DNA of 64,000 nt, taken from assembly GCA_947039455.1 (NCBI GenBank), contig CAMQZB010000001.1, positions 15,877-79,876 of the forward strand, given 5' to 3'. Origin of the DNA: an uncultured Clostridia bacterium. GTDB taxonomy: Bacteria > Bacillota > Clostridia > Christensenellales > CAMQZB01. The position numbers and the translations under genes were made by a program. Numbering within the stretch: the stretch's first letter is position 1; every line of letters starts with the position of its first letter. Of the stretch, positions 18,055 to 63,939 are shown in pieces. The notes below the pieces were generated by a model that had not been told where the DNA came from, searched no databases, and saw only the letters and a program-made list of their open reading frames with translations.

Positions 18055-18136
18055 AAACATAAATCAAACTAACGTAGTAAAAAACACAAACTAAATCACC
18101 GAAAAAGCACTAAACTAAAAGAACGTAGCATATAAT

Positions 18137-18175
18137 AAAATGATGTTATTACAAAAGTAGTAACATCATTTTATA
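18137..18175 (+). terminator. Strong hairpin between the two serpin genes (terminator or 5'-UTR structure)
   Basis: 16-bp stem with 1 mismatch (aaaatgatgttattac/gtagtaacatcatttt), aaaa loop, then ttttat. It ends about 15 nt before the RBS of the next gene. Confidence 0.6.
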
Positions 18176-18202
18176 GATAAAACAGCAAGGAGAACGGAAA
18201 AA

Positions 18203-48308: not shown

Positions 48309-48929
48309 TTACTTCAAGAAAATACTTTTTTCGATAATATCCATAACGTAAACATCAACAAGTTTATCGAATTTAGCGTCATCATATTCACCTTCGAACA
48401 TAGCTTTCAAACCCATGAAGTTGGTGATACCCATAAGCACATAAGACAAGGTTTCAACATCAACAAATTCTGCTATTTCATCGCATTCTGATAGATGTTT
48501 AGTGTAAGTTTCCGCAAATGACATATAGTAATCTTTGAATATTTTTTTATCAACAGAAAGACTTCCCCAAATAATATCGTATACGTGAGGATTTTCGTAA
48601 ACATATTTCACGAAAGTTTTAATACCAACACGCTCTTTATCACGACGAGAAGATTCCTTAATAATAGCATCACGTAAAACGTCCTTGATCTCACGCTTAT
48701 AGCTTTGCACTAAAAGACGATAGACAGCAAGACGATCGGTGAAGTATATGTAAAAAGTCCCAACGGCAACACCAGCCTCATGACAAATGTCCCGAATAGA
48801 GGTGTCATAGAACCCCTTTTTGATGAACATTTTTTGAGCTGATTCTGCAATCTTCACTAATTTTTCTTTACCTAATAATGTTTTAGGCGTGTTTACGCCC
48901 TCAATGTTTTTTGTTAAAATTATTTCCAT
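48309..48929 (-). CDS. TetR/AcrR-family regulator
   Basis: HTH FYDTSIRDICHEAGVAVGTFYIYF. Start moved to Met17 because a promoter lies inside the longer ORF. Confidence 0.8.
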   Translation of the reverse strand: MEIILTKNIEGVNTPKTLLGKEKLVKIAESAQKMFIKKGFYDTSIRDICHEAGVAVGTFYIYFTDRLAVYRLLVQSYKREIKDVLRDAIIKESSRRDKERVGIKTFVKYVYENPHVYDIIWGSLSVDKKIFKDYYMSFAETYTKHLSECDEIAEFVDVETLSYVLMGITNFMGLKAMFEGEYDDAKFDKLVDVYVMDIIEKSIFLK

Positions 48930-48935
48930 GAAATA

Positions 48936-48964
48936 ACTATAATACATTTTTTGACAATTTGCAA
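48936..48964 (-). promoter_or_regulatory. Promoter of the TetR gene, possibly producing a leaderless mRNA
   Basis: Minus strand reads TTGCAA, a 17-nt spacer, TATAGT, then only 6 nt before the ATG at 48929. No RBS. Confidence 0.5.
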
Positions 48965-48989
48965 TAGTTTTTAGCAAAAAATGCTAAAA

Positions 48990-49008
48990 TTATGAATATT
49001 TTTCATAA
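48990..49008. promoter_or_regulatory. Operator-like palindrome A (TTATGAA-N5-TTCATAA)
   Basis: Perfect 7-bp inverted arms, upstream of the tetR promoter. Confidence 0.6.
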
Positions 49009-49065
49009 AAAAGAAAAGATTGTTAAATTTTTTTCAAAAAAAACAAATTATTTTTCAAAAAGGTA

Positions 49066-49094
49066 TTGACAAACGTAAAAGAAAGGGGTATTAT
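49066..49094 (+). promoter_or_regulatory. Sigma-A promoter of the maoC-bcd-etfBA operon
   Basis: TTGACA, a 17-nt spacer, then TATTAT. Confidence 0.75.
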
Positions 49095-49107
49095 AGAAGT
49101 AGATGTA

Positions 49108-49128
49108 ATTATGAATATAGTTCATAAT
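49108..49128. promoter_or_regulatory. Operator-like palindrome B (ATTATGAA-N5-TTCATAAT)
   Basis: Perfect 8-bp inverted arms, 14 nt downstream of the -10 box. Confidence 0.65.
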
Positions 49129-49146
49129 TAATATAAGGAGAGCATT

Positions 49147-49551
49147 ATGAAGTACTCAGAAATTTCTATTGGAATGAAAGACAGTCTTTCAAAAACTTTT
49201 TCAGAAGCCGACATCGTTATGTTTGCTGGCGTATCATTGGATGTAAATCCATTGCATATGAATGAAGAGTTTGCAAAAACAACAGTATTTGGCAAAAGAA
49301 TTTGTCACGGAATGTTGTCTTGTGGATTAATATCTGCGTGCCTAGCAAACAAATTGCCAGGTGCTGGAACAATCTACTTGGGTCAAGAAGTAAAATTCAC
49401 TGCACCAGTATTTATTGGTGACACAGTAACAGCTGAGCTTGAAATAGTTGAGATGAGAGATGATAAACATATTATCAAACTTTCTACAAACTGTTTTAAT
49501 CAAGACGGAAAACAAGTTATAGCAGGAACAGCAACTGTAAAGTTGCCATAA
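49147..49551 (+). CDS. MaoC-like (R)-specific enoyl-CoA hydratase (PhaJ-type)
   Basis: 134-aa single hot-dog with DVNPLHMNEEFAKTTVFGKRICHGML (hydratase 2 motif). Confidence 0.8.
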   Translation: MKYSEISIGMKDSLSKTFSEADIVMFAGVSLDVNPLHMNEEFAKTTVFGKRICHGMLSCGLISACLANKLPGAGTIYLGQEVKFTAPVFIGDTVTAELEIVEMRDDKHIIKLSTNCFNQDGKQVIAGTATVKLP

Positions 49552-49571
49552 TTTTATTAGAGGTGTATTAA

Positions 49572-50711
49572 ATGAGTAAAGTTTATAAGTATGATTTATT
49601 CAATCAAATGATTGAAGAATTCGCATTAAGAGAAGTTAAACCAATAGCTGAAGAAGTTGATGAAGAAGAAAGATTTCCAACTGAAACAGTAGCAAAAATG
49701 TCTAAGATTGGACTTATGGGAACAATCGTGCCAAAGCAATACGGCGGAATGGGCGGAGATTATCAAATGTATGTCAAAGCCGTTGCTGAACTTAGTAAAC
49801 ATTGCGGAACTACAGGAGTAATCTTGTCAGCGCATATGTCACTATGTGTAGCACCGATTCTTGACTTTGGAACAGAAGAACAAAAAATGAGATACTTACC
49901 AAGAATGTCAACAGGTGAATGGATCGGAGCATTTGGTTTAACAGAGCCAAACGCAGGAACTGATGCAAGTAACCAACAAACTATCGCAGTTGAACATGAC
50001 GATCATTGGGTAATCAACGGATCAAAAATCTTCATCACAAATGCAGGTTATGCAGAAGTGTACGTTATCGTTGCGGTAACAGCACGTGAAGGCAGAAAAG
50101 TTGAAATGACTACTTTCTTAATGGAAGCGTCAATGCCTGGATTTACTATTGGTAAGAAAGAAAAGAAAATGGGAATTCGTGGTTCATCAACTTGCGAGCT
50201 AATTTTCAAAGACGTAATCGTACCAAAAGAGAACATGCTTGGAAAACGTGGTGAAGGATTCAAAATCGCAATGAAAACTCTTGACGGAGGCCGTATCGGA
50301 ATCGCAGCTCAAGCACTAGGCTTAGCAGAAGGCGCGTTAAACGAAACAGTTTCATACGTTAAAGAAAGAAAACAATTCGGTCGTCCTATTGCACAACTAC
50401 AAAACACGCAATTCACATTAGCTGATATGTCAGTTAGAGTAGAAGCCTCAAGATTGTTAGTAGAAAGAGCGATGAATGCAAAACAAAACAAAGATAGAGC
50501 GTTGTCAGTATATGCTGCTGAAGCTAAATTATTTGCTTCTGAAACAGCGTCATATGTAACATCAAAAGCGGTGCAATTGCACGGTGGATATGGATATACA
50601 AGAGAATATCCAGTTGAACGTATGATGAGAGATGCAAAGATTACTGAAATCTACGAAGGTACTAGCGAAGTGCAAAAGATGGTTATATCTGGCGCATTAT
50701 TGAAGAAGTAG
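49572..50711 (+). CDS. bcd: Short-chain (butyryl-CoA type) acyl-CoA dehydrogenase
   Basis: 379 aa. GLTEPNAGTDA and the catalytic-base context YEGTSEVQ. Followed by etfBA. Confidence 0.85.
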   Translation: MSKVYKYDLFNQMIEEFALREVKPIAEEVDEEERFPTETVAKMSKIGLMGTIVPKQYGGMGGDYQMYVKAVAELSKHCGTTGVILSAHMSLCVAPILDFGTEEQKMRYLPRMSTGEWIGAFGLTEPNAGTDASNQQTIAVEHDDHWVINGSKIFITNAGYAEVYVIVAVTAREGRKVEMTTFLMEASMPGFTIGKKEKKMGIRGSSTCELIFKDVIVPKENMLGKRGEGFKIAMKTLDGGRIGIAAQALGLAEGALNETVSYVKERKQFGRPIAQLQNTQFTLADMSVRVEASRLLVERAMNAKQNKDRALSVYAAEAKLFASETASYVTSKAVQLHGGYGYTREYPVERMMRDAKITEIYEGTSEVQKMVISGALLKK

Positions 50712-50723
50712 GAGATAATTAAT

Positions 50724-51509
50724 ATGAGAATAGCAGTATGTATTAAACAAGTTCCAAATACAACTGAGATCAAAATTGATCCAGTAACAAATACATTGAA
50801 GAGAGATGGTGTACCATCAATCATGAACCCAGACGACAAAGCAGCACTAGAGAGCGCATTAGTATTAAAAGACAAATACAATGCAGAAGTAGTTGTAGTA
50901 ACAATGGGTCCTCCACAAGCTGAGTTGATATTGCGTGAAGCAATGTCAATGGGTGCTGACGAAGCGTTCCTAGTAACAGATAGAGCATTTGCTGGATCTG
51001 ACACATGGGCAACTTCAACTATCCTAGCAGCAGCTTTGAAAAAAGTAGGCTATGATATTATTATCGGAGGCCGTCAAGCAATCGATGGAGATACAGCGCA
51101 AGTTGGACCTCAAATCGCTGAGCATCTTGATATCCCACAAGTAACTTATGTTGTAGAAATCGACATTGACGAGAAAAATAATGTATGTAGAGTTAAAAAA
51201 GAATTCGAAGACAGATATCAAATCGTTGAAGTAAAAGGCAAAGCATTGTTCACAGTATTGTCAGGAATGAATGAGCCAAGATATATGTTAGTAGGGGGAA
51301 TCGTAGACCAAGAAGAAAAAGCAATCACAGTGATAACAGTTAATGATATCGAAGTTGATCGTGGAAACATTGGACTATTGGGTTCACCAACAAAAGTTAA
51401 ATCATCATTCAGCAAAACAGTTGACTCAAACAAAGAGTTAATTGAGCTTAGCCCACAAGAAGCGGCTAAAGTAATCGCTGACAAACTTGCTGAAAAGCAT
51501 ATCATATAG
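50724..51509 (+). CDS. etfB: Electron transfer flavoprotein beta subunit
   Basis: MRIAVCIKQVPNT is a canonical start. 261 aa. Confidence 0.9.
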   Translation: MRIAVCIKQVPNTTEIKIDPVTNTLKRDGVPSIMNPDDKAALESALVLKDKYNAEVVVVTMGPPQAELILREAMSMGADEAFLVTDRAFAGSDTWATSTILAAALKKVGYDIIIGGRQAIDGDTAQVGPQIAEHLDIPQVTYVVEIDIDEKNNVCRVKKEFEDRYQIVEVKGKALFTVLSGMNEPRYMLVGGIVDQEEKAITVITVNDIEVDRGNIGLLGSPTKVKSSFSKTVDSNKELIELSPQEAAKVIADKLAEKHII

Positions 51510-51520
51510 AGGAGACTAGA

Positions 51521-52501
51521 ATGAGTAAAGATATTTTCGTTTATATAGAGCAAAGAGATAGAGTAATTCAAAATGTAAGTTTTGAGTTAATTGGCGAGGC
51601 TCGTCGTCTTGTAGCCGTTTCAGGCGGTAATGTATGTGGTGTGTTAGTTGGAAACAACATAGCAAGCCTAGCAAAAGAAGTAGTAGCAAACGGAGCTGAT
51701 AAAGTTTTCGTAGTTGATAACAAAGAGTTAGAATACTATACTACTGAATGTTACGCACAAGCAGTGACAGCGGTTGTTAGAAAACATTCACCAAACGCAA
51801 TGTTGTTTGGCGCATCAACAATCGGACGTGACTTAGCACCAAGAATTTCAGCAAGAGTTCATACAGGACTTACAGCTGATTGTACTGATTTGAAAATTGA
51901 TGAAGAAGGCAACTTGTTTATGACAAGACCTGCATTTGGCGGAAGTTTATTCGCAACAATTGCATGCCCAGATCACAGACCACAAATGTCAACAGTACGT
52001 CCTGGCGTTATGAAAAAAGTAGAGTATGATACAAACCGTGCAGGTGAAATAATCACTGAAGACGTTGCAATCGATGCTACAAAATTCGCAGTGAAAATAG
52101 TTGAAGAAGTTAAAGAAACTAAAGCAGCTGTAAAAATCGAAGACTCTAAAATCTTAGTATCAATGGGTCGTGGATTAGAGAATAACCTAGCACAAGTGAA
52201 AAACTTCGCAACAGTTATTGGTGGAACAGTTTCATGTTCAAGAGCCGTAGTAGATGCTGGAGTATGGAAATCTGACAGACAAGTTGGTCAAACAGGAAAA
52301 ACAGTTCGCCCTGATGTGTATTTCGCAATGGGAATTTCTGGAGCGGTACAACATATCGCAGGAATGGACGGATCTGACTTGATAATTGCAATCAACAAAG
52401 ACAAAACTGCAGCGATATTCAATACTGCACACCTTGGAATTGTAGGCGATGCAACAGCGATTATGCCAGAGCTAGAGAAAGAAATCTTAGCAAGAAAGTA
52501 A
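51521..52501 (+). CDS. etfA: Electron transfer flavoprotein alpha subunit
   Basis: C-terminal FAD motif AIGISGAVQHIAGM. 326 aa. Confidence 0.9.
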   Translation: MSKDIFVYIEQRDRVIQNVSFELIGEARRLVAVSGGNVCGVLVGNNIASLAKEVVANGADKVFVVDNKELEYYTTECYAQAVTAVVRKHSPNAMLFGASTIGRDLAPRISARVHTGLTADCTDLKIDEEGNLFMTRPAFGGSLFATIACPDHRPQMSTVRPGVMKKVEYDTNRAGEIITEDVAIDATKFAVKIVEEVKETKAAVKIEDSKILVSMGRGLENNLAQVKNFATVIGGTVSCSRAVVDAGVWKSDRQVGQTGKTVRPDVYFAMGISGAVQHIAGMDGSDLIIAINKDKTAAIFNTAHLGIVGDATAIMPELEKEILARK

Positions 52502-52717
52502 ACTTATAAGGAATTATAAGGGAACTATAAAAAACAGAGTTAATTTTAAAATTGATTACTAGTATACTGAAATATAGCAGTAAATTTTTTTTCATATTAT
52601 CTAAAAGAGGCTTGCCTAATGGGAGATTGTAAAACGCAATTTTCCATGGGCGAAATTCTTTAAAATGATAGTAGAAAAATAATATGAAAGTTTTTCATGT
52701 TATTTTTCATTTTAGTA

Positions 52718-52746
52718 TTGACAAACTCAATTTTGTGTGTTAAAAT
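52718..52746 (+). promoter_or_regulatory. Extended -10 sigma-A promoter upstream of the thiolase operon
   Basis: TTGACA, a 17-nt spacer ending in TGT, then TAAAAT. Confidence 0.65.
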
Positions 52747-52827
52747 TTTATCGAAACAGATTACAGTTGTAAAGAACAATGAAATAGTCATTGCACTTAC
52801 ATAAATCTTCTTTTTTTTCCACAAAAA

Positions 52828-52894
52828 TGTGAACATAATTCATTACATAATATGGCAGATTTTTTTTGCACATAATTATGAACATAATTCAACA
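52828..52894. promoter_or_regulatory. Two further operator-like sites C and D related to TTATGAA-N5-TTCATAA
   Basis: Site C: atgtgaa-cataa-ttcatta (52827-52845). Site D: ttatgaa-cataa-ttcaaca (52876-52894). Confidence 0.5.
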
Positions 52895-52918
52895 ATTTTA
52901 GACAATAGGAGAAAAAAG

Positions 52919-54124
52919 ATGAGTAAAGTATTTTTAGTTAGTGGTAAAAGAACTGCAATTGGTTCAATGCTAGGTGGTTTAAAATCAGTTTCGCCAGCAG
53001 ACATGGGCGCGGAAGTAGTAAAAGCGTTAATATCTGACAGCAAAGTAAACCCAGCTAATATAGATGAAGTTATCATGGGAAATATACTATGTGCAGGACT
53101 AGCACAAGGTGTAGCACGTCAAGTATCAATCAAAGCAGGAATTCCACAAGAAGTACCAGCGTATTCATTGAATATGATATGCGGAAGCGGAATGAAAGCA
53201 GTGTTGAACGCATACGGAAACATCAAAGCAGGTCTACATCATATAGTAGTTGCAGGTGGAACTGAATCAATGTCATCAGCTCCAATGTTGATACCATCAA
53301 AAGTTAGAACAGGAACAAAATTCGGAAATTTCCAAGTGGTAGATCACATGGTAAATGACGCTCTAACTGACGCATTCACAGGAGTGCATATGGGAGTAAC
53401 AGCTGAGAACATCGCTGAAAAATATTCTATTACAAGAGAAGCACAAGACAATTTCGCAGCTTATTCACAAGCGAAAGCAATCAAAGCAGTTGATGCAGGA
53501 TTGTTTAAAGAAGAAATCGTTCCAATCAATGTTAAAGAAGGCAGAAACGAGTTTGTATTTGATACAGACGAGTATCCAAACAGAAAATCAACTGCTGAAA
53601 AACTTGGAACACTTCGTCCAGCTTTCAAAAAAGATGGATCAGTAACAGCTGGAAACGCATCAGGAATTAACGACGGTGCAAGTGCAGTGTTGTTAGCAAG
53701 TGAAGAAGCAGTAGCAAAATATAACTTAAACCCAATTTGTGAAATCGTAGGAGTTGGACAAGGGGGAGTAGACCCACAAGTAATGGGACTAGGACCAGTA
53801 CCAGCAGTTAAAATGGCATTGAAAAATGCGGGATTAACTCTTCAAGATATGGAGATACTTGAACTTAACGAGGCATTTGCCGCACAAAGTATTGGCGTAG
53901 TAACAGAATTAGCTGAACACTACGGAATGAGCATGGAAGATATATTCGCAAGAACAAATCCACGTGGAGGAGCGATTGCCCTAGGACATCCAGTAGGAGC
54001 TTCAGGAAACAGAATATTAGTAACACTTGTTCATGAAATGAAACAAAACAAAAACAAACTTGGTTTAGCATCATTGTGTATCGGTGGTGGAATGGGAACA
54101 GCAGTTGTAGTAAAATTCAACTAA
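52919..54124 (+). CDS. Acetyl-CoA C-acetyltransferase (thiolase II)
   Basis: Catalytic NMICGSGMKA (Cys), GNASGINDGA and CIGGGMG. Start moved to MSKVFLVSGKRTAIG after AGGAG. Confidence 0.9.
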   Translation: MSKVFLVSGKRTAIGSMLGGLKSVSPADMGAEVVKALISDSKVNPANIDEVIMGNILCAGLAQGVARQVSIKAGIPQEVPAYSLNMICGSGMKAVLNAYGNIKAGLHHIVVAGGTESMSSAPMLIPSKVRTGTKFGNFQVVDHMVNDALTDAFTGVHMGVTAENIAEKYSITREAQDNFAAYSQAKAIKAVDAGLFKEEIVPINVKEGRNEFVFDTDEYPNRKSTAEKLGTLRPAFKKDGSVTAGNASGINDGASAVLLASEEAVAKYNLNPICEIVGVGQGGVDPQVMGLGPVPAVKMALKNAGLTLQDMEILELNEAFAAQSIGVVTELAEHYGMSMEDIFARTNPRGGAIALGHPVGASGNRILVTLVHEMKQNKNKLGLASLCIGGGMGTAVVVKFN

Positions 54125-54208
54125 CAAAAACGAAATATAAATAATTGATTTATATAATATAAAAACATATTGAAAACAGAAAAATTGGATTAATGAGGAG
54201 ACAAGATT

Positions 54209-54928
54209 ATGAGATTAAAAAACAAAGTAGCTATAGTTACAGGTGGATCAAGAGGATTAGGACAAGCAATGGCGGAGTTATTCGCAGCTGAAGGCGCAAA
54301 AGTTATCGCAGTAGATATGGGCGATATGGTTTATGAATGTGCAAACGTTGAGTACTATAAACTTAACGTAACAGACAGAGACGCTTGTAAATCATTCTAT
54401 GATTGGGCAATTGCAAAATACGGACAAATCGACGTTCTAGTAAATAATGCTGGAGTAACTCGTGATTCAATGACAAGAAAAATGACAGACGAAATGTTTG
54501 ATTTCGTACTTGATGTAAACTTGAAAGGCGTATTTAACCTAACTAGATATATCGGACCACAAATGGAAGAAATCGGTGGCGGATCTATCATTAACATCTC
54601 ATCAGTAGTAGGCGTATTCGGAAATATCGGACAAGCAAACTATGCAGCTACAAAATCTGGCGTAATCGGAATGACAAAATCATGGGCAAAAGAATTTGCT
54701 AGAAAAGGTGTTCCAGTAAGAGTAAATGCACTTGCACCAGGATACACAATGACAGACATGATGAAAACAGTACCAGAAGATTTGTTGAAACAATTCGCTG
54801 GACAAACTATGTTAAAAAGACTTGGAGAGCCAGAAGATATTGCTAAAGCAACATTGTTCTTAGCATCTGATGATTCATCATATGTTACAGGACACGTACT
54901 TGAAGTAACAGGCGGAATGAGACTTTAG
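54209..54928 (+). CDS. SDR-family 3-oxoacyl reductase (FabG/PhaB-like)
   Basis: TGGSRGLG, NNAG and S...YAATK motifs. 239 aa. Confidence 0.8.
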   Translation: MRLKNKVAIVTGGSRGLGQAMAELFAAEGAKVIAVDMGDMVYECANVEYYKLNVTDRDACKSFYDWAIAKYGQIDVLVNNAGVTRDSMTRKMTDEMFDFVLDVNLKGVFNLTRYIGPQMEEIGGGSIINISSVVGVFGNIGQANYAATKSGVIGMTKSWAKEFARKGVPVRVNALAPGYTMTDMMKTVPEDLLKQFAGQTMLKRLGEPEDIAKATLFLASDDSSYVTGHVLEVTGGMRL

Positions 54929-54961
54929 AATAACACAGTAATTGATAATATGGAGGACAAA

Positions 54962-55975
54962 ATGGTGAATGTAGGAATAGTTGGAGTTGGAACATACTTC
55001 CCAAAATCATACAAAACAGCAAGCGACATTGCGGAAGCAACAAACGGAGTTTGGAGTGCAGATGCAGTTGAGAACAAGCTAGGAATAAAGAAAGTATTTA
55101 TTCCAGGCCCTGAAGACGGCACACAAGAAATGGGTGCAAAAGCGGGCTTGAAATGTTTAGAAAACACAGGAGTTGACCCAAAGGAAATCGACGTAGTTCT
55201 TTGCATAGGCGAAGAGTGGAAAGAGTATCCTTTGACAACATCAGCACTATACATTCAAGATCGTATCGGAGCAGTAAACGCTTGGGGCATTGATGTAGCA
55301 AATAGATGTTGCACATGCGTATCAGCTATGAAAATTGCAAAAGATATGTTGATTGCCGATGATGAAATCAATACTATCATGGTAGTTGGCGGATACAGAA
55401 ACGGTGACTTCGTTGATTACACAGACAAGAATATGTCTATGATGTTCAACTTGTCAGCAGGTGGTGGAGCTATAATCTTGAAAAAGAACTATGGCAAAAA
55501 CTTACTTCTAGGATCAAAAGTAATTGCAGACGGAAGTTTAGCAAGAACAGCAGGAGTAGAGATTGGCGGAACAGTTAATCCAATAACTGCTGATAACCTA
55601 GAAGCGTCAAGAAAATCCCTAAGATTACTAGACCCAGTTAAAATGAAAACTCGTTTAAACGAAGTTTCAATGCCAAACTGGTTTAAATGTATAGATGAGA
55701 GTTTGAAACAAGCTAAGATGACAAGAGCAGATATCGACTATCTTGATGTATTGCACATGAAGAAAAGCGGACATATCGGAATGCTTAATGATCTTGGAAT
55801 GACTGAAGACCAATCAATCTACCTAGAAGATTATGGACACGTTGGACAAATTGACCAAATCCTATCACTAGAACTTGGATTAAAAGAAGGAAAAGTGAAA
55901 GACGGCTCAGTAGTATGTATGATCGCAGCCGGAATAGGATATGTTTGGTCAGCAAATATAATTAAGTGGGGGTAA
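54962..55975 (+). CDS. Thiolase-fold condensing enzyme (KAS III / archaeal-type HMG-CoA synthase-like); alternative start at 54950
   Basis: VGIVGVGTYFPK N-terminus, GEEW, and DVANRCCTC (candidate nucleophile Cys). GGAGG 5 nt upstream of 54962. Confidence 0.65.
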   Translation: MVNVGIVGVGTYFPKSYKTASDIAEATNGVWSADAVENKLGIKKVFIPGPEDGTQEMGAKAGLKCLENTGVDPKEIDVVLCIGEEWKEYPLTTSALYIQDRIGAVNAWGIDVANRCCTCVSAMKIAKDMLIADDEINTIMVVGGYRNGDFVDYTDKNMSMMFNLSAGGGAIILKKNYGKNLLLGSKVIADGSLARTAGVEIGGTVNPITADNLEASRKSLRLLDPVKMKTRLNEVSMPNWFKCIDESLKQAKMTRADIDYLDVLHMKKSGHIGMLNDLGMTEDQSIYLEDYGHVGQIDQILSLELGLKEGKVKDGSVVCMIAAGIGYVWSANIIKWG

Positions 55976-55982
55976 AAAAACT

Positions 55983-56873
55983 ATGGATTTAGGATTATTT
56001 TTACAAACAATAGTTAACAGTTTCCAAGGAATAGCAATGTACTCACTTGCAACCTTTGGGATTGTACTAATATTCCGTACTTCAGCAACAACAAACTTTG
56101 CTCAAGGAGCTATAGCAACATTCGGTTGTTATGTAGCAACACAATTCGGTGTAATAAACGGAATGAATCTTTGGGTATCGTTAGTACTTGGAATGTTGAC
56201 CGCATTTGCATTAGGCGTAATTATCGATAACTTTATCATAAGACGAGGAAAAGATGTAAACGCAGCAGGAAAGCAAATGATAACTATGGGATTGCTACTA
56301 GTATTTACAAATATAATACCAGTTATATTCTCAATGATAACTATCACAACACCAGCAACTAAGAACTTTGCAACAGGAAGTTTTAACTTTACGTTATTAG
56401 GGCAAGATATTTATTGGCCATATCAATCAATGATATGCGTACTTCTAGCGGTAGTATTGCTTGGAGCAGTATTTGCAGCATTGAAGTTCACAAAATGGGG
56501 ACTTGGAGTGCGTGCAACAGCGTCTAACGAAACTGTAGCAAAAATGATGGGCGTAAATACAAAGGTAATCACAGCATTAAGTTGGGCGATTGCCGGAGCA
56601 CTAGCAACAGTAGCAGCGTGTTCAATGCAAACAGTACTAAACCCAGCAATGATGGGAAAAGCTCAAACATACGGATTCTTAGCCTGCGTGCTTGGAGGAT
56701 TGTCAAGCTTTATAGCACCAATTATTGGAGCAATCATAATTCCAGTAGTAATAAACTTCGCAGCAATATACACATCAGCATGGGCTGAACTAATCATGTT
56801 CTGCATCGTATTGCTTCTAATTCTTATTAGACCAAATGGACTATTCGGCAAGAAGTTCATAAAGAAGGTGTAA
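55983..56873 (+). CDS. Branched-chain amino acid-type ABC permease (LivH family)
   Basis: 296-aa polytopic protein with a LivH-like layout. First of the permease pair. Confidence 0.75.
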   Translation: MDLGLFLQTIVNSFQGIAMYSLATFGIVLIFRTSATTNFAQGAIATFGCYVATQFGVINGMNLWVSLVLGMLTAFALGVIIDNFIIRRGKDVNAAGKQMITMGLLLVFTNIIPVIFSMITITTPATKNFATGSFNFTLLGQDIYWPYQSMICVLLAVVLLGAVFAALKFTKWGLGVRATASNETVAKMMGVNTKVITALSWAIAGALATVAACSMQTVLNPAMMGKAQTYGFLACVLGGLSSFIAPIIGAIIIPVVINFAAIYTSAWAELIMFCIVLLLILIRPNGLFGKKFIKKV

Positions 56874-56874
56874 A

Positions 56875-57945
56875 ATGATTAAAAATAAAATGAAAAATCC
56901 TTTAGTAGCGAAAATTGCTAAAGTATCAAAACATCCATATGCAACATTCATATACTTTGGATTAGCAACAGTAGTATTGTTATTACTTCAAATGTTTACT
57001 CCATTGATAAAATACTCATTTGTAGGCGCACTTGCACAAACAATGTGTTATGCAATCGTAGCCGTGGGGTTCTCGTATCTATTAGGATATGCAGGATTAT
57101 CATCACTAGGAACAGCGGGTTTCGTAGGACTAGGTTCATACATTACAGTTTATATGCTACGCACATATTCTGGAATGAACTATTTCGTAGTGATGTTAAT
57201 TGTGTTAGTAGTATCTATTATAATCGGATTAATAGTAGGATTTATCTCACTAAGAATTGAAGGAATTTTCCTTGCAATCGTAACTCTAGGATTATCTGAG
57301 GTATTCTATCAAGTATTTATGAACGCAACAGAGTTTACAGGTGGATCAAACGGAACATCATTCACAGGTGAAGTAAATATCTTCCCAGGAATAAGTTTAG
57401 GCCGTGAGGGTGTCTTTATAATGATAGCTGTATTCTTAACGGCAATGATCATAATGACATTCAACCTAGTAAACAGCCCAACAGGCAGAGCAATGCTAGC
57501 AATGAAAAACTCAACATCAGCAGCGCAAGCAATGGGAATTTCACTTCTAAAATACAGACTACTTGCATTTATCTTAGCAACAATTTACGCAGCAATCGCT
57601 GGTTCATTGCTAATGACATTTAACAAGTATACCGATCCAAAGAGTTGGACGATAATGTTCTCTCTAAACATCTTAGCAGCGTGTTTGTTGGGTGGCACAA
57701 GATCAATTTGGGGTATATTTATCGGTACGTTCTTCGTATTCGGTTTAACGCCTATGTTCCTAAACGACATAGTATTCTTGAGAAACAATCCATGGTTGTT
57801 GTCAACAATTATAGGTGTAGTACTAATTTTAGTTCTTATGTTCTATAAAGGTGGATTAATGCAATTATTACACGATATTAAGAAATTTGTAAATAACAAA
57901 ATAAGTAAGAGAAGGGAGTTTAAGTATGGAAAAGATGAAATCTAA
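56875..57945 (+). CDS. Branched-chain amino acid-type ABC permease (LivM family)
   Basis: 356-aa polytopic protein. GYAGLSSLGTAGFVGLGSY motif. Confidence 0.75.
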   Translation: MIKNKMKNPLVAKIAKVSKHPYATFIYFGLATVVLLLLQMFTPLIKYSFVGALAQTMCYAIVAVGFSYLLGYAGLSSLGTAGFVGLGSYITVYMLRTYSGMNYFVVMLIVLVVSIIIGLIVGFISLRIEGIFLAIVTLGLSEVFYQVFMNATEFTGGSNGTSFTGEVNIFPGISLGREGVFIMIAVFLTAMIIMTFNLVNSPTGRAMLAMKNSTSAAQAMGISLLKYRLLAFILATIYAAIAGSLLMTFNKYTDPKSWTIMFSLNILAACLLGGTRSIWGIFIGTFFVFGLTPMFLNDIVFLRNNPWLLSTIIGVVLILVLMFYKGGLMQLLHDIKKFVNNKISKRREFKYGKDEI

Positions 57946-59395
57946 TAGCAAAATAAATACTCTCGCATCAAAAATTGAGCAATTAAAACATAAACTTGAT
58001 TTGAACAAAGCACTTGTAGAGTTAGAGCAAAGCAAACTTGACGACGTACGTAAAAGTAAAGTTGATAGTTTTAAATTTAAATTATCAAAAAATCTTTTAA
58101 AACTTGAAAGAGAGTCAATTCCTGCTGAAGAATTGTTTAATGTTGAAAATCAAAAAAACTTTGTTAAATTTGATAAAAAGTTAGACCTTGAATACAGAGC
58201 AAAAAGACAAACTTTAAGAAGAGATGAGAACCTTGTAGATAAACAAAACAATGTAACAGGCGAACTTTCTAGCAAAGCTCAAGCTGAGCTAGTAGCTTTC
58301 AAAGGAGAACTTGACGCAAAGAAAATTGCACATGTTGAAGCATTAAGAGCAAAGTTCAAACAATTACAAGAACCAAAAACAACACAAGAACTAGCGCAAG
58401 CAGTTTCAGCTTATGAAAAAGCTCAAAGTGAGGCAGATGACGCAGCAAAAGCATTTGACCTAGAACTTATAGCTAAACATAACGAGAAAATAGAAGGGTA
58501 CAAAGCAAAAGTAGACGTAAAAATTACAGCAATGCAAAAAGGGTACGATGAATCTAAATCCGAGTTAAACGCTTTACAAAAAGAAGATCAAAAAAGTCAA
58601 TATCAACTTGCTGATGATACAATTTTAAAACTTGAACATCTAACAATGCAATTCGGTGGACTAAAAGCGGTAAATGATTTATCATTTGAAGTTAAGAAAG
58701 GCGAGATATTCGGTTTAATAGGACCAAACGGAGCGGGAAAAACAACAGTGTTTAACTGCATCACTCAATTCTATAAACCAACTTCAGGCGACGTTTGGTA
58801 TAAAGATGCCAAAGATCAAGTACATTATTTAAATGATTATGTAGTGCATAACGTTATTCGTTATGGAATCGTTAGAACATTCCAAAACGTAGAAGTTATT
58901 GCTGAATTAAGTATTTTAGAAAACCTTTTGATCGCAGCTCATACTCAGTATAAAACAAGTATTTTTGCACAAATGATAAATTCTCCACATTTAAAACGTG
59001 AAGAAATATTATTAAGAAGAAAAGCACAAAAGATTTTAAAATATCTAAAACTTGACGACATACAAGACGTACCACCAGTTGGAATGCCTTACGGTGTGTT
59101 AAAGAAAATAGAGCTTGCCCGTACACTAATGGCAGGAGCAAACTTGATTATCCTTGACGAGCCGGCGGCAGGTCTAAACGATCAAGAAACTTTAGAGCTA
59201 GCAGAGATAATCAAAGATATTAAAAACGAATATAAAGTAACAATCTTCCTAGTAGAACATGATATGGGACTTGTTATGGATATTTGCGATCACATCTGTG
59301 CAATATCTTTTGGTAGCAAACTTGCATACGGAACACCTTCAGAGATTCAATCTAACAAAAAAGTACAAGAAGCATATCTTGGAAGTGAGGACTAA
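57926..59395 (+). CDS. LivG-type ABC ATPase with a ~235-aa N-terminal coiled-coil-like extension
   Basis: Walker [10 protein letters not shown] is at about residue 268 of 489. The signature-motif position reads [11 protein letters not shown]. Walker [12 protein letters not shown]. The N-terminal region is K/E/Q/A-rich. Confidence 0.8.
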
Positions 59396-59396
59396 T

Positions 59397-60170
59397 ATGG
59401 GAATAGCATTAAAATTAGATAAATTATCAGTTTCTTACGGAGCAATAGCAGCCTTGAAAGAGGTGACTATTGAGGTAGAAGAAGGTTCAATAGTAGCACT
59501 GCTTGGTGCAAACGGTGCAGGTAAATCTACACTGTTACGTACAGTTTCTGGAATAGTTAAAGCAAGTGGTGGAGACATCACATTGTTTGATAAAAGCATA
59601 TTAGGAATTGAGCCATACAAAATTGCATACGCAGGAGTAATTCAGTCACCAGAAGGTCGTATGATTTTAAACGGACTTACTGTTGAAGATAATCTTCTAG
59701 TAGGAACTTATGGTCTAAAAAAACAAGAAACAACTTATTTTGAAGAAGGGCAAAAAATAACGAGAGTTATGAGTGTCAAAGAACAAAAAAAGAGAAATTT
59801 CGAAAGAGTATATAAATACTTCCCAATCTTGAAAGACAGAAAATCTCAACAAGCAAGTACATTGTCAGGAGGCGAGCAACAAATGCTAGCAATCGGACGT
59901 GCACTAATGGCAAGTCCAAAAGTGTTACTACTTGATGAGCCATCATTGGGATTAGCCCCTCTTATTGTTCGTGATATTTTTTCTATCATCGACCAAATTA
60001 GACAAGAGGGAAACACGATTCTAATAGTAGAACAAAATGCGTACCAAACATTGAAAATTGCAAACTACGGATATGTTCTAGAACTTGGAAAAGTAACAAT
60101 AGAAGGACCAGCTAAAGAGCTTCTTTCAAATGAGAAGTTAATTGAAGCGTACCTAGGTGGAAAACACTAA
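59397..60170 (+). CDS. LivF-type ABC ATPase
   Basis: GANGAGKST, LSGGEQQMLAIGRAL, LLLDEPSLGLAP. Start moved to the ATG after GAGG, 2 nt past the livG stop. Confidence 0.85.
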   Translation: MGIALKLDKLSVSYGAIAALKEVTIEVEEGSIVALLGANGAGKSTLLRTVSGIVKASGGDITLFDKSILGIEPYKIAYAGVIQSPEGRMILNGLTVEDNLLVGTYGLKKQETTYFEEGQKITRVMSVKEQKKRNFERVYKYFPILKDRKSQQASTLSGGEQQMLAIGRALMASPKVLLLDEPSLGLAPLIVRDIFSIIDQIRQEGNTILIVEQNAYQTLKIANYGYVLELGKVTIEGPAKELLSNEKLIEAYLGGKH

Positions 60171-60229
60171 AAAATAGCCATTAAGTCCAAAGAAATTGGA
60201 TTTATAATATAAAATGGAGGAAATGAATT

Positions 60230-61531
60230 ATGAAAAAATTAATAGCAATCGTATTAATTATCGCAATGCTAGTATCAACAGTAGCATGTGGCGGTGGAGC
60301 TGGTGAAATCACTATCGGCGCATCAATCACAAGCACAGGCCCTTATGCAGCAGTAGGTGTACCTTACGGTAACTTCTACAAAGCGTATGTTGATTACATC
60401 AACGCTCATCCAGAGAGTTATCCAGAAATGGGTGGGAAAACTCTAAATGCAATCGTTTATGACGATGCAGGTGATGGTGCTCAAGGAAAACAATACATCG
60501 AAAAACTTATCAATGATGATAAAGTTGATGCATTAGTAGGTATTCTTGGAACATGGAACGTAGTAGCTGCTCAAGAAGTTCTTGAGACTGCTGGTATTCC
60601 ATCAGTTTACTTCGGTACTGGATCATCAGCACAAATGTATGAGCCAGCAGAAGGCGACCAAAGATATATGATGGGTGTTCAACCTTTGTACAAAACTGAA
60701 GGAAGACTTATGTACCTTCGTGCAATTACAGAGTTCGAAGACGTAAAAACTATTGGTGTTATCCACTCTGACGCAGATGACGGAATTTCATTGAAAGACG
60801 GAATCATGGCGCAAATGGAAGAAGATAAACGTGAAAACAAACCTACAGTAATTTTCCAACAAATTTCATCATCAGCAACTAAAACAGATATCACTTCTCA
60901 AGTAGCTGCAATTGAAGGTTGTGACGTAATTATCGCTGCTGGTAACCAAGCACCATTCCAAGCAATCTACAAAGCAACTCAAGAAAATGTTTCAACAAAA
61001 GGTGTTCCAATTCTTACAACTTATGTAAACATTGCACCAACTAACATGCCTGAAGAAGCAATCGTAGAAGGTAACAGCGAAATTTTCGGTGCTTCATGGA
61101 TCGTATTTGGCGAAGAAGCAGGTTCATCAGATGAAGCAGACAGACGTCTTGCTGATTATGCTGAGTACTGTGCAGTAGTTGATTGGGATACAAAACATAT
61201 TCCAGCTGACCAAAAAGAAGCTTACAAAGCAAACGCATATGCAATGAGTTCATTCATCGCTATCCGTACATTCCTAGTAGGAATGGAAAGACTTACTGAA
61301 GGTGCATTAGAATTCACTCCAGAAAACTACTTGAAAGTTATGGAAGCTGAACGTGTTCCAATCGCAATCTCAGGATCAGCAAAATACGAAAACGGACAAC
61401 GTATCGGACTAGATTCATTGTCATTCGTAAAATTCGTACCAACTGCTGGAGAAGCAGCTGCTAAAGGTACTTTCGTAGAAATGGATGCTATGCAATCAAT
61501 CGACGATCTTATCTCTAAATTAGTAGGTTAA
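60230..61531 (+). CDS. ABC substrate-binding lipoprotein (type 1 PBP, Liv/amide-urea family)
   Basis: Lipobox VSTVACGG. 433 aa. Last gene of the transporter block. Confidence 0.7.
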   Translation: MKKLIAIVLIIAMLVSTVACGGGAGEITIGASITSTGPYAAVGVPYGNFYKAYVDYINAHPESYPEMGGKTLNAIVYDDAGDGAQGKQYIEKLINDDKVDALVGILGTWNVVAAQEVLETAGIPSVYFGTGSSAQMYEPAEGDQRYMMGVQPLYKTEGRLMYLRAITEFEDVKTIGVIHSDADDGISLKDGIMAQMEEDKRENKPTVIFQQISSSATKTDITSQVAAIEGCDVIIAAGNQAPFQAIYKATQENVSTKGVPILTTYVNIAPTNMPEEAIVEGNSEIFGASWIVFGEEAGSSDEADRRLADYAEYCAVVDWDTKHIPADQKEAYKANAYAMSSFIAIRTFLVGMERLTEGALEFTPENYLKVMEAERVPIAISGSAKYENGQRIGLDSLSFVKFVPTAGEAAAKGTFVEMDAMQSIDDLISKLVG

Positions 61532-61583
61532 TCTAAAGCCAATCTATTATTTGTGAAAGCAAATAAAATAAGTTATCATATTG

Positions 61584-61613
61584 TTGATTGGGGAGGGCGA
61601 CCTCCCCTTGATA
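61584..61613 (+). terminator. GC-rich hairpin without a U-tract (possible terminator or stabiliser)
   Basis: ggggagg-gcga-cctcccc, flanked by tattgt...acaata. Confidence 0.4.
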
Positions 61614-61802
61614 CAATAAATTATTTATTTATCAAAAACAACCAAATAAATACATACTAAAAACTAAAGAATATTGTATAATTGATGCAATATAAATCAG
61701 AAAAATCAAATGAAAAACAGTTTCTTGTTTTATTAAGTAAAAGCAAGCAAAAATTATCGAATAATTTCTCAAAAAAATATTATTAACAGGAGATTTATAT
61801 AC

Positions 61803-63113
61803 ATGGCAAAAATAATAACAGCTGAAAAAGCTCTAGAATTAGTAAAAGACGGTGATTATATAGTGGTGGGAATGGCTTCAAGCGAACCGCTAGAATTTTG
61901 TTCAAATCTGCACAAAATTGCACCAAGAATTGATCAAATCACACTAACAAACTGCCTAGCAATGAAAGCTTATGATTTTATGACTGATGAATCAATTAGA
62001 AGTAAATTCAATGTAGAAAGCTGGTTTTTTGATGGAACATCAAGAAAGAATTTCCAACAAGGAAACTTTTCATTCATACCAAACCACTTGCATTTCGCAT
62101 CATCAAAAAGATTAGTTCACAAAAGCCCTGACATCACAATAGTAAGTGCATCAATGCCTGATAAACACGGATATGTATCAGTAGCGCTAGCAAATGTGTA
62201 TGAGCAAGAGCATTTGAAACGTGCCAAAATCTCAATCCTAGAGATTAATCCAAATATTCCAAGAACATTCGGAGACGTGTCAGTGCATATTGACGACATC
62301 GACTATCTAGTTGAATGTAGTTACCAACCACCAATTATTCCTGAAGGCGTATCAAACGATAAAGACAAAAAAATCGGAGCATACATTGCTGATTACATTA
62401 AAGACGGCGACTGTCTACAAGTAGGCATAGGCGGAATTCCTGACGCAGTAGTAGCATCTTTATTCGACAAAAAAGACCTTGGTGTACATACCGAAATGAT
62501 GACAACAGGTCTTATGAAACTAGCAAAAGCTGGCGTAGTAAACGGTTCAAAAAAGCAAACACACGTAGGCAAAATAGTAGCATGTTTCGCTGCAGGAACA
62601 CAAGAATTATATGAATATATGGACGATAACCCATCAATTTTAATAATGGACGGCGCATATGTAAACGATTCATGGGTAATTTCTCAAAATGACAATCAAG
62701 TATCAATAAACACAACTTTGGAAATCGATTTAGTTGGACAATGTTGTTCAGAATCAATCGGTTCACGTCAATTCTCAGGAACAGGCGGACAAACTGATAC
62801 AGCGGTTGGCGCGAAAATGTCTAAAAACGGACGCTCATTTATTGCATTATATTCAACAGCAATGGTGAAAAATAAAGCAACAGGTGAAAGAGAAGAAAAG
62901 AGTAAAATCGTAGCACAATTAACAGCTGGTGCAATAGTTTCATTGTCAAGAAACGACGTGGATTATGTAGTAACTGAGTATGGTTGCGTATGCTTAACAG
63001 GAACATCATGTGCTGAGCGTGTGGAATTACTAATCTCAATCGCACACCCAGATTTCCGTGATCAACTATGGAACGACGCAATCAAATGCGGAGTAGCGGT
63101 TAAAAGGGTATAA
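61803..63113 (+). CDS. Acetyl-CoA hydrolase/transferase family CoA-transferase (butyryl-CoA:acetate or 4-hydroxybutyrate type)
   Basis: 436 aa. N-terminus ITAEKALELVKDGDYIVVGMASSEP. GIGGIPDAV and EMMT(T)G motifs. Confidence 0.75.
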   Translation: MAKIITAEKALELVKDGDYIVVGMASSEPLEFCSNLHKIAPRIDQITLTNCLAMKAYDFMTDESIRSKFNVESWFFDGTSRKNFQQGNFSFIPNHLHFASSKRLVHKSPDITIVSASMPDKHGYVSVALANVYEQEHLKRAKISILEINPNIPRTFGDVSVHIDDIDYLVECSYQPPIIPEGVSNDKDKKIGAYIADYIKDGDCLQVGIGGIPDAVVASLFDKKDLGVHTEMMTTGLMKLAKAGVVNGSKKQTHVGKIVACFAAGTQELYEYMDDNPSILIMDGAYVNDSWVISQNDNQVSINTTLEIDLVGQCCSESIGSRQFSGTGGQTDTAVGAKMSKNGRSFIALYSTAMVKNKATGEREEKSKIVAQLTAGAIVSLSRNDVDYVVTEYGCVCLTGTSCAERVELLISIAHPDFRDQLWNDAIKCGVAVKRV

Positions 63114-63117
63114 AATC

Positions 63118-63939
63118 ATGTCAGAATTTAATTTTAAAAACAATATAATACATTATGAAGTTTATGGAGAAGGGAAACCTCTAATTATTTTAAACGGAAT
63201 AATGATGACAACAAAAAGTTGGGAAATCTTTAAAACAGCATTTTCAAAAAACAATAAATTAATACTTGTTGACTTCCTTGATCAAGGAGCTAGCTGTCGA
63301 ATGACTGAAAGCTACACGCAAAAAGACCAAGTTGAAGTTCTTCGAGAATTATATAATGAATTAGGTATTGACAAAGCAAGCCTTTGTGGTATATCATATG
63401 GTGGAGAAGTAGCAATACAATTCGCAATAAAATACGGTGACTTAGTTGATAAACTAGTATTGTCAAACACAGCAGGAAGAACAAGCCCATGGCTACGTGA
63501 TATCGGAAACGCATGGAACGCAGCTGGAGAGAATGAAAACTGCGGACAACAGTACTATTTAACAGCAATTCCAGTTATATATTCACCGAAATTCTATGAA
63601 GATCGCCTTGATTGGATGAAAAATCGCGAGAAAATTCTAGTACCGTATTTCAATGACAAAACGGTAATGGCAACAATCAAACGTCTAGTAATCAGTGCGG
63701 AAAACTACAACGAAGTGAATAATTTAGAGAAAATAACAGCAAAAACATTGGTAATAAGTTGTGATGAAGACTATTTAACACCAATGAAAGAGCAAAACAT
63801 TTTGAAATCAAAAATTCCAAACAGCCAACTAGTAATAATACCAGAAGTGGGTCATGCGTCAATGTACGAAAAACCTGAATTATGGGCTACACTAGTTTTA
63901 GGATTTGTGAATTTGGATTGTAATATTAAACTTATATAA
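63118..63939 (+). CDS. Alpha/beta-fold hydrolase
   Basis: Nucleophile elbow GISYGG, C-terminal GHASMYEKP. 273 aa. 4-nt gap after the CoA-transferase gene. Confidence 0.7.
   Translation: MSEFNFKNNIIHYEVYGEGKPLIILNGIMMTTKSWEIFKTAFSKNNKLILVDFLDQGASCRMTESYTQKDQVEVLRELYNELGIDKASLCGISYGGEVAIQFAIKYGDLVDKLVLSNTAGRTSPWLRDIGNAWNAAGENENCGQQYYLTAIPVIYSPKFYEDRLDWMKNREKILVPYFNDKTVMATIKRLVISAENYNEVNNLEKITAKTLVISCDEDYLTPMKEQNILKSKIPNSQLVIIPEVGHASMYEKPELWATLVLGFVNLDCNIKLI

Follow-up and report, generated by a model that had tools for sequence, protein, structure and literature searches.

The window analyzed here is a 64,000-nucleotide stretch from an uncultured Clostridia bacterium (contig CAMQZB010000001.1, positions 15,877 to 79,876). 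From 48309 to 63939 it carries a gene cluster that a first-pass annotation had described as a butyrate-type acyl-coenzyme A (CoA) cluster, apparently built from R-specific enzymes (a thiolase, a PhaB-like short-chain dehydrogenase/reductase (SDR) and a PhaJ/MaoC hydratase) instead of 3-hydroxybutyryl-CoA dehydrogenase (Hbd) and crotonase (Crt). Domain calls were made with Pfam and family calls with NCBIfam from the listing of open reading frames (ORFs), and coordinates are those of the window unless they carry a locus number (Table 1). The results showed that every gene named in that annotation exists where it had been placed, and that a TetR regulator, a five-gene Liv-type ABC importer (55983-61531) and an alpha/beta hydrolase had been left out.

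Table 1. Genes and putative regulatory sites of the cluster, in window order
Feature	Coordinates	Strand	Remarks
TetR-family regulator	48309-48977	-	ORF of 222 aa; gene callers start at 48929, giving 206 aa
Putative operator 1	48993-49005		TGAATATTTTTCA; tetR-maoC intergenic region, tetR side
Promoter-like site, maoC-bcd-etfBA operon	49066-49094	+	TTGACA, 17 nt, TATTAT; 11/12 consensus; consensus match only
Putative operator 2	49112-49124		Core inside palindrome ATTATGAA-N5-TTCATAAT (longest form), just 3' of -10 hexamer
MaoC, PhaJ-like (R)-specific enoyl-CoA hydratase	49147-49551	+	134 aa; Pfam MaoC_dehydratas
Butyryl-CoA dehydrogenase (Bcd type)	49572-50711	+	Three ACAD Pfam domains; PDB matches
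EtfB, small subunit, bifurcating-type electron-transfer flavoprotein	50724-51509	+	Bit scores against known Etfs
EtfA, large subunit	51521-52501	+	Pfam ETF and ETF_alpha; NCBIfam AcrA-type, 354 bits
Promoter-like site, thl-sdr-kas3-ABC operon	52718-52746	+	TTGACA, 17 nt, TAAAAT, TG extension; consensus match only
Putative operator 3	52830-52842		TGAACATAATTCA; 5' of thiolase gene
Putative operator 4	52879-52891		TGAACATAATTCA; 5' of thiolase gene
Acetoacetyl-CoA thiolase (PhaA/BktB-like)	52919-54124	+	401 aa by gene callers; ORF from GTG 52829
NAD(H)-type 3-oxoacyl-CoA reductase / (R)-3-hydroxyacyl-CoA dehydrogenase, classical SDR	54209-54928	+	
Orphan KAS III-fold enzyme (NF005308/PRK06840 family)	54950-55975	+	
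ABC permease, LivH-like	55983-56873	+	Pfam BPD_transp_2; syntenic in 38/39 loci
ABC permease, LivM-like	56875-57945	+	Pfam BPD_transp_2
ABC ATPase, LivG-like	57926-59395	+	Pfam ABC_tran (residues 249-414) and BCA_ABC_TP_C
ABC ATPase, LivF-like	59397-60170	+	257 aa; Pfam ABC_tran
Extracytoplasmic solute-binding protein (Peripla_BP_6)	60230-61531	+	Pfam, 92 bits; signal peptide, Cys20
Family-I CoA-transferase, 4-hydroxybutyrate/butyryl-CoA:acetate type (acetyl-CoA hydrolase/transferase family)	61803-63113	+	
Alpha/beta-hydrolase esterase 1, cytoplasmic	63118-63939	+	GxSxG; PDB 4q3l
PhaZ-like hydrolase, beyond window end	L084:10844-11728 (= L083:19000-19884)		NF050089; PDB 8ynv
Third alpha/beta hydrolase, beyond window end	L084:11989-12807		Paralogue of esterase 1, 31% identical

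A gap of 417 bp separates the EtfA gene from the thiolase gene, and a second, non-coding gap of 270 bp (61532-61802) lies between the genes for the binding protein and the CoA-transferase. The window belongs to a metagenomic contig of 81 kb, and the cluster continues past the window: two more hydrolase genes follow at about window positions 63960-65925 (L084:10844-12807), and the genes beyond them are unrelated (DUF896, AraC, glycosidases), which places the end of the cluster about 2 kb outside the window. Immediately 5' of the cluster, directly after a PadR regulator, is a 336-aa ORF (47218-48228) with no Pfam match.

A scan of a genome collection with the KAS III-like protein as query gave 447 relatives, and the best 80 species genomes were retrieved. 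These best 80 of 447 show 72-82% identity and are spread across bacterial classes, the carriers being Christensenellales-like and other Clostridia, Erysipelotrichaceae (Erysipelotrichia), Proteiniclasticum, Acholeplasma and Izemoplasmatales. Analysis by tblastn and ORF clustering showed that almost all of them carry this gene set, a recurrence that puts the arrangement far beyond chance. Components were counted in the 39 related loci that have complete 10-kb flanks. The ABC genes and the binding protein were present in all 39, and TetR, the SDR, the KAS III-like protein, the CoA-transferase and esterase 1 in 38 each; a second hydrolase family, resembling poly-3-hydroxybutyrate (PHB) depolymerases, occurred in 35, the thiolase in 29, MaoC in 23, Bcd in 20 and Etf in 18. 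Because the counts for thiolase, MaoC, Bcd and Etf are lower than those for the importer, CoA-transferase and esterase, the genes emphasized in the first-pass annotation are the variable periphery of the system, and the genes it omitted are the invariant core. None of the genes flanking the cluster recur among the related loci, and conserved neighbors were therefore rejected as a clue to function.

The acyl-CoA enzymes and their regulation

Neither of the two canonical S-route enzymes was detected. Pfam found no 3HCDH (Hbd) or ECH (crotonase) domain in the 55 longer ORFs of the window, nearly all of at least 100 aa, and a tblastn search of the window and of 83 loci (about 1.3 Mb) with Hbd and Crt probes gave no match. 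Pfam confirmed both probe sequences as full-length family members. The absence of Hbd and crotonase, as it had been noted for the cluster, is thus solid at the local scale and extends to the whole 64-kb window. With an SDR and a MaoC/PhaJ hydratase in place of these two enzymes, the intermediate is expected to have the R configuration.

The MaoC protein scored 100.4 bits on PF01575 (cutoff 27), and its nearest solved structures, 1iq6 (E 1e-36) and 5cpg (E 6e-35), are both (R)-specific enoyl-CoA hydratases. Aligned with PhaJ of Aeromonas caviae, it was 48% identical without gaps over an equal length and kept Asp32, His37 and the pocket residues Leu66 and Val131. We take the Leu and Val of this pocket to restrict PhaJ to short chains (C4-C6). 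The hydratase-2 motif D-x-N-P-x-H reads D32-V-N-P-L-H37 in the window protein, and both the Asp and the His are invariant among 30 orthologues. The designation as a PhaJ/MaoC hydratase was thereby upheld, and we infer that the enzyme is R-stereospecific for the hydration of crotonyl-CoA.

The SDR contains the TGxxxGxG and Y-x3-K motifs of the classical type, and Asp36 follows strand beta-2 ('VIAVDM'). An acidic residue at this place is the usual sign of NAD(H) preference, and Asp36 sets the protein apart from the NADPH-preferring PhaB. Its scores fell under the cutoffs of the PhaB models (NF042966, 189.7 vs. 436 bits; TIGR01829, 235.6 vs. 302.1) and also under those of the FabG models (NF004198, 269.8 vs. 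296; TIGR01830, 267.7 vs. 297.75). Given these scores and Asp36, we placed the protein in neither FabG nor PhaB and regard it as a 3-oxoacyl-CoA reductase/(R)-3-hydroxyacyl-CoA dehydrogenase of the NAD type; the earlier label of PhaB-like SDR holds as far as the FabG/PhaB type of classical SDR goes and does not extend to PhaB itself. SDRs of the FabG/PhaB type make (R)-3-hydroxyacyl thioesters, and we infer the same stereochemistry for the window enzyme. The nearest structure was 4NBT, the 'FabG' of Acholeplasma laidlawii (E 1e-103), which is listed among NAD-bound dehydrogenases and was deposited with a study of NADH-dependent FabG (PMC5264612). The cluster contains no acyl carrier protein (ACP) gene.

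The acyl-CoA dehydrogenase matched the butyryl-CoA dehydrogenases 9w60 (514 bits) and 5ol2_C, Bcd of Clostridioides difficile (507 bits), and its gene is adjacent to those of the electron-transfer flavoprotein (Etf) in the order bcd-etfB-etfA (49572-52501). EtfB scored 301 bits against 5ol2_B, 271 against CarD (6fah_B) and 213 against 4kpu_B, all from bifurcating Etfs, vs. about 80-89 bits against non-bifurcating ETF-beta. The motifs 'DGDTAQVGP' and 'RPAFGG', which we take to be marks of the bifurcating (second-FAD) group, are visible in the Etf sequence. These data agree with the earlier assignment to the bifurcating type, the nearest complex being that of C. difficile (5ol2), and suggest that Bcd-EtfAB probably couples the NADH-dependent reduction of crotonyl-CoA to that of ferredoxin. 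The thiolase has both Pfam domains (Thiolase_N and Thiolase_C) and visible Cys88, His and Cys motifs, and exceeded the cutoff of TIGR01930 (454 bits). The CoA-transferase was closest to 3eh7 (E 2e-91) and belongs to the wider 4-hydroxybutyrate CoA-transferase family; its 322.8 bits fell short of the 674.8 required by the equivalog model TIGR03948 (But).

The regulator gene encodes a TetR_N domain (Pfam, E 5e-10) and showed weak NCBIfam matches to the acyl-CoA-responsive FadR and FasR. The palindrome core TGAAYATWDTTCA has exactly four matches in 64 kb, vs. 0.11 expected by chance, and all four lie in two promoter regions, two between tetR and maoC and two 5' of the thiolase gene. Strong promoter-like hexamers are found beside them. 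In the equivalent promoter regions of related loci, the form TGAA-N5-TTCA was enriched 16-fold, and in two of these loci it precedes both operons. Because the putative operator occurs only in the two promoter regions, TetR probably binds there and represses both operons as one regulon, and we treat the two operons as one functional system. The link between them that the first-pass annotation had drawn is in this way reinforced by a common operator. In an Rfam scan the cluster gave no match to any RNA element.

Importer, hydrolases and the KAS III-like protein

The binding protein of the importer is not a LivJ/K protein, scoring 28 bits on that family against a cutoff of 477, and uptake of branched-chain amino acids was rejected on this score and on the lack of aminotransferase or keto-acid dehydrogenase genes. 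Its PDB matches were weak and confined to the N-terminal part, to aromatic-acid binding proteins of R. palustris, and its orthologues are typically only about 30% identical to one another. In the LivG-like ATPase (57926-59395), the NCBIfam LivG model aligned with residues 231-487. Ahead of the ABC domain, this protein has a Lys/Glu-rich extension of about 230 residues, probably a coiled coil, which is present in some related loci only, the others having an ordinary LivG of about 255 aa.

The nearest structure to esterase 1 was the metagenomic esterase MGS-M2 (4q3l, E 4e-75), and low-scoring matches of the esterases include meta-cleavage-product hydrolases and enol-lactonases. The PhaZ-like gene beyond the window end matched NF050089, the model for intracellular depolymerases of short-chain-length polyhydroxyalkanoates (PHAs), over its full length with 298.5 bits (cutoff 300), and matched the solved PHB depolymerase 8ynv with E 5e-63. 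Eight of the 10 cluster-linked orthologues tested, which come from different lineages, matched NF050089, six of them over the cutoff (309-338 bits) and two at 286-294 bits. The gene is thus predicted to encode a homologue of the Bacillus PhaZ-type PHB depolymerase. All three hydrolases have a GxSxG serine box, 'GWSTG' in the PhaZ-like copy, and lack a signal peptide, suggesting an intracellular site of action. The cluster encodes neither an extracellular depolymerase nor a PhaC-type GxCxG alpha/beta hydrolase, and nothing PhaC-like was seen within 10 kb downstream. Most relatives have the PhaZ-like gene between those for the binding protein and the CoA-transferase, where the window has its 270-bp gap. 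Nine loci (L027, L031, L034, L051, L053, L060, L069, L070 and L081) carry the PhaZ-like family in a longer form of about 345 aa, divergent, on the minus strand upstream of the core; this form belongs to Proteiniclasticum and some Christensenellales, and the two copies tested missed E 1e-40 on NF050089.

The KAS III-like protein scored 466.7 bits on NF005308 (PRK06840; cutoff 315) and 103.2 bits on the FabH model TIGR00747 (cutoff 292.1). The name of NF005308 and the names of all database relatives say only '3-oxoacyl-ACP synthase', in generic terms. Alignment with HMMER and MAFFT showed that Cys112 and His244 of E. coli FabH are kept as the invariant Cys120 and His269, and that His297 stands where FabH has Asn274, as it does in 79 of 81 family members. 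The protein therefore has Cys120, His269 and His297 in place of the Cys-His-Asn triad of FabH. A pair of glutamates, Glu88-Glu89, is invariant in the motif GEEWKEYPLTTSA; we presume, as a lead and not as a test, that Glu89 corresponds in position to the catalytic Glu of HMG-CoA synthase. The AlphaFold model had a mean confidence (pLDDT) of 83.8, and two strongly conserved loops, one of which holds the Glu-Glu motif, were modelled at low confidence. Foldseek matched the model to FabH structures at E of about 1e-24, with TM scores of 0.77-0.82 and about 20% identity, with BioZ, OleA and PqsD ranked close behind, and CerJ was among the weak PDB matches. Directly after the CoA-transferase gene, L018 and L040 have another KAS III-like gene, which is very divergent (27% identical) and lacks the His-His signature; in L018 it occupies the usual place of the esterase gene.

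Candidate roles for this protein are a non-decarboxylative Claisen or retro-Claisen reaction, oxo-ester/CoA acyl transfer on 3-hydroxybutyrate oligomers, and acetoacetyl-CoA synthesis of the NphT7 kind. That it is an enzyme of a new kind, active in the metabolism of 3-hydroxybutyrate esters, for example one that cleaves oligomers thiolytically or makes oligo- or poly-3-hydroxybutyrate without PhaC, seems to us quite improbable. Thiolytic cleavage, if it occurs, would conserve the energy of the ester bond as a thioester, and either role would mean an unrecognized anaerobic PHB or ketone-body pathway that feeds butyrate in gut and sediment bacteria. Three other functions were rejected: pimeloyl synthesis of the BioZ type (no bio genes, no ACP, and BioZ only a distant fold match), lactone or olefin synthesis of the OleABCD type (no OleC, and an SDR not of the OleD type), and ketogenesis through an HMG-CoA-synthase-like step (no HMG-CoA lyase).

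Proposed function and its alternatives

Taken together, the gene content suggests a self-contained, TetR-controlled cluster for the inducible uptake of (R)-3-hydroxybutyrate or its oligomers and their dismutation to acetate and butyrate, a reading to which we give an even chance. The substrate is most likely (R)-3-hydroxybutyrate or one of its small oligomers or esters, which arise when bacterial PHB is broken down. The substrate would be imported by the binding-protein-dependent ABC system, and cytoplasmic esterases, including the PHB depolymerase homologue, would cut ester bonds to release 3-hydroxybutyrate. The CoA-transferase may then activate it with acetyl-CoA or butyryl-CoA to (R)-3-hydroxybutyryl-CoA, from which two branches could depart. 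In the oxidative branch, the NAD-type SDR would give acetoacetyl-CoA and the thiolase two acetyl-CoA, with ATP possible via acetate; in the reductive branch, the PhaJ-like hydratase would give crotonyl-CoA and Bcd-EtfAB butyryl-CoA, probably with reduction of ferredoxin, and the CoA-transferase would release butyrate. The net conversion would be 2 3-hydroxybutyrate to 2 acetate and butyrate.

On this proposal the enzymes are R-specific because the substrate, natural PHB or 3-hydroxybutyrate, is itself R. Given that the importer, CoA-transferase and esterases are the best conserved parts, the R-stereochemistry is more simply explained by a substrate of the (R)-3-hydroxybutyrate type that enters at (R)-3-hydroxybutyryl-CoA. 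The conversion has a precedent in Ilyobacter polytropus and I. delafieldii, which ferment 3-hydroxybutyrate or PHB to acetate and butyrate, with a deltaG0' of -59 kJ/mol for 2 3-hydroxybutyrate to 2 acetate and butyrate (PMC10096456, PMC3035301).

Several points weigh against this proposal. The binding protein has no specific ligand signature and no informative close relative. Spending ATP to import a monomer that returns at most about one ATP makes poor energetic sense, which obliges the proposal to assume oligomers or high-affinity scavenging. The scheme has no step for the best conserved protein, the KAS III-like one, and many loci lack the thiolase and the Bcd-Etf module, which may be encoded elsewhere in those genomes. 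The name 'PHA depolymerase', which comes from a hidden Markov model, is no proof of specificity, and the copy in the window organism is 1.5 bits under the cutoff of that model. Finally, we know of no cultured carrier (Proteiniclasticum, Acholeplasma) that uses 3-hydroxybutyrate or PHB.

An alternative substrate would be a different imported ester or hydroxy or keto acid, broken down in a manner like beta-oxidation, with the KAS III-like protein carrying out a key C-C or acyl-transfer step; other short- or medium-chain 3-hydroxyalkanoates, acetoacetate esters and lactone-type or aromatic-acid substrates are candidates. An importer, a CoA-transferase, hydrolases and a TetR regulator make up a generic catabolic architecture, the low identity among binding-protein orthologues could mean varied ligands, and the weak structural matches of the binding protein are to binders of aromatic acids. 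The low-score likeness of the esterases to meta-cleavage-product hydrolases and enol-lactonases points the same way, and the unexplained KAS III-like protein suggests chemistry beyond simple use of 3-hydroxybutyrate. However, every acyl-CoA enzyme belongs to the short-chain (C4) type (the Leu/Val pocket of PhaJ, Bcd and an acetoacetyl-CoA-type thiolase), and among the hydrolases the one assignment close to equivalog level is to a short-chain PHA depolymerase. Genes for ring cleavage, a decarboxylase or a CoA ligase do not occur alongside the cluster. We consider such a substrate unlikely. The lower beta-ketoadipate pathway (enol-lactonase, CoA-transferase and 3-oxoadipyl-CoA thiolase) was rejected, its scores being far under the cutoffs and PhaJ, Bcd and PhaZ matching better; respiration of the caffeate type (CarABCDE) was rejected as well, Bcd and EtfB being nearer to Bcd-Etf than to CarC and CarD.

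The first-pass annotation had favored synthesis of butyrate from acetyl-CoA as the main role, with R-specific enzymes replacing Hbd and crotonase, which would leave the transporter and hydrolases incidental. Because the steps are reversible or shared, an R route from acetyl-CoA to butyrate could also run on these enzymes; the complete enzyme set is present and co-regulated, and PhaB and PhaJ are known to work as a route to crotonyl-CoA in engineered butanol pathways (PMC7099781, PMC6652007). The lack of Hbd and Crt in the window and in every one of the loci searched also fits, but it is established for these sequences only. The supposedly incidental genes are the most constant (38-39 of 39 loci), whereas the thiolase (29) and Bcd/Etf (18-20) are the least so, and a TetR repressor, an importer and three esterases in the operon would be unusual for a central fermentation pathway. 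In addition, the CoA-transferase stays far under the butyryl-CoA:acetate equivalog cutoff (323 vs. 675 bits). De novo synthesis as the main role therefore appears to us rather unlikely. What stands of the original idea is the set of R-type enzymes and their chemistry; on the favored catabolic proposal the entry point and the direction would differ, and the cluster is not simply an operon for butyrate synthesis.

The order thl-sdr-kas3 parallels phaA-phaB-phaC, and this raises an intracellular storage cycle of poly- or oligo-3-hydroxybutyrate that runs without PhaC, in which the thiolase and SDR would make monomer-CoA, the KAS III-like protein would form esters and the PhaZ-like protein, a homologue from a family of intracellular depolymerases, would mobilize them. 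The cluster lacks the GxCxG hydrolase, ester-forming KAS III-fold enzymes such as CerJ are known, and the Asn linked to decarboxylation is substituted in the KAS III-like protein. Such a cycle is nevertheless highly improbable, for it leaves the invariant importer and CoA-transferase unexplained, no KAS III enzyme that polymerizes hydroxyacyl-CoA is known, no phasin or PhaR genes were found nearby, and PHB granules are not known in the carrier lineages.

If the cluster does serve the uptake and dismutation of (R)-3-hydroxybutyrate, it would provide a gene-level basis for the anaerobic turnover of this compound and of PHB fragments. To our knowledge there is no published genetics for this turnover in fermentative anaerobes, although its physiology has been known since the 1980s. 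The cluster would also point to gut bacteria that could turn host ketone bodies or dietary PHB into butyrate. A natural R route of a PhaB-type reductase, PhaJ and bifurcating-type Bcd-Etf would be missed by surveys of butyrate producers that use hbd and crt as markers, and it appears in hundreds of uncultured species from gut, rumen, digester and sediment. The KAS III-fold enzyme, widespread and strongly conserved with an altered active site, is a target for enzymology.

Elsewhere in the window, an acyl-ACP thioesterase gene (10465-11205) indicates that the organism has acyl-ACP (type II fatty acid synthesis) metabolism separate from the CoA-based cluster. An FMN riboswitch (12945-13070; Rfam RF00050, 111.7 bits) precedes the gene for an ECF-transporter S component (13231-13896) that presumably serves the uptake of riboflavin. 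At 16038-19414, the gene for an ECF-type sigma factor comes first and two serpin genes in tandem, of 492 and 403 aa, come after it; serpins are uncommon in bacteria, and their presence is notable for a gut-type Clostridia genome. A single ORF of 2910 residues (33269-42001) with Glug and YDG domains probably encodes a giant surface or adhesin-like protein.

Comparison with known systems

The enzyme families of the cluster are each known, as is the R-route chemistry; the natural combination was not found described. In the literature searched, there was no description of a natural cluster joining PhaB/PhaJ to Bcd-Etf, or of the cluster in Acholeplasma. With the clostridial butyrate (bcs) operon, thl-crt-hbd-bcd-etfB-etfA and a CoA-transferase, the window cluster has in common the thiolase, Bcd, bifurcating-type EtfBA, a short-chain CoA-transferase and the order bcd-etfB-etfA. 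Unlike that operon, it has an SDR and a hot-dog hydratase of the MaoC/PhaJ type instead of Hbd and crotonase, and it adds the importer, the esterases, the orphan KAS III-like gene and the TetR regulator.

The PHB cycle of aerobes and Bacillus (phaA, phaB, phaJ, phaZ) is matched by the PhaA-like thiolase, PhaB-type chemistry, the PhaJ-like hydratase and the PhaZ homologue. The window cluster differs from it in lacking PhaC, phasin and PhaR, in a reductase that is predicted to be of the NAD(H) and not the NADPH type, in its coupling to Bcd-Etf, the ABC importer and the CoA-transferase, and in its occurrence in strict anaerobes and Mollicutes-like lineages. Among thiolase-fold enzymes (FabH, HMG-CoA synthase, OleA), the KAS III-like protein has a fold like that of FabH (TM about 0.8) and keeps both the nucleophilic Cys and the first His. 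It differs from FabH in its low identity (about 20%), in the change of Asn274 to an invariant His, in its score below the FabH cutoff and in the absence of an ACP gene from the cluster.

The ethylmalonyl-CoA pathway uses the R route through PhaA-PhaB-CroR. This pathway and the engineered butanol pathways (PhaB and PhaJ; PMC7099781, PMC6652007) take the same three steps from acetyl-CoA through acetoacetyl-CoA and (R)-3-hydroxybutyryl-CoA to crotonyl-CoA. They are assimilatory or synthetic and continue with Ccr or Ter, whereas the window cluster has Bcd-Etf of the bifurcating type and belongs to fermentative anaerobes. Details of the Ilyobacter fermentation of 3-hydroxybutyrate were reportedly given by Janssen and Schink in 1993, and we know of physiology and enzyme activities for this organism and of no gene cluster. 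The Ilyobacter fermentation of 3-hydroxybutyrate or PHB has the same net conversion as the one predicted for the window cluster, and the same activation by CoA transfer (PMC10096456, PMC3035301).

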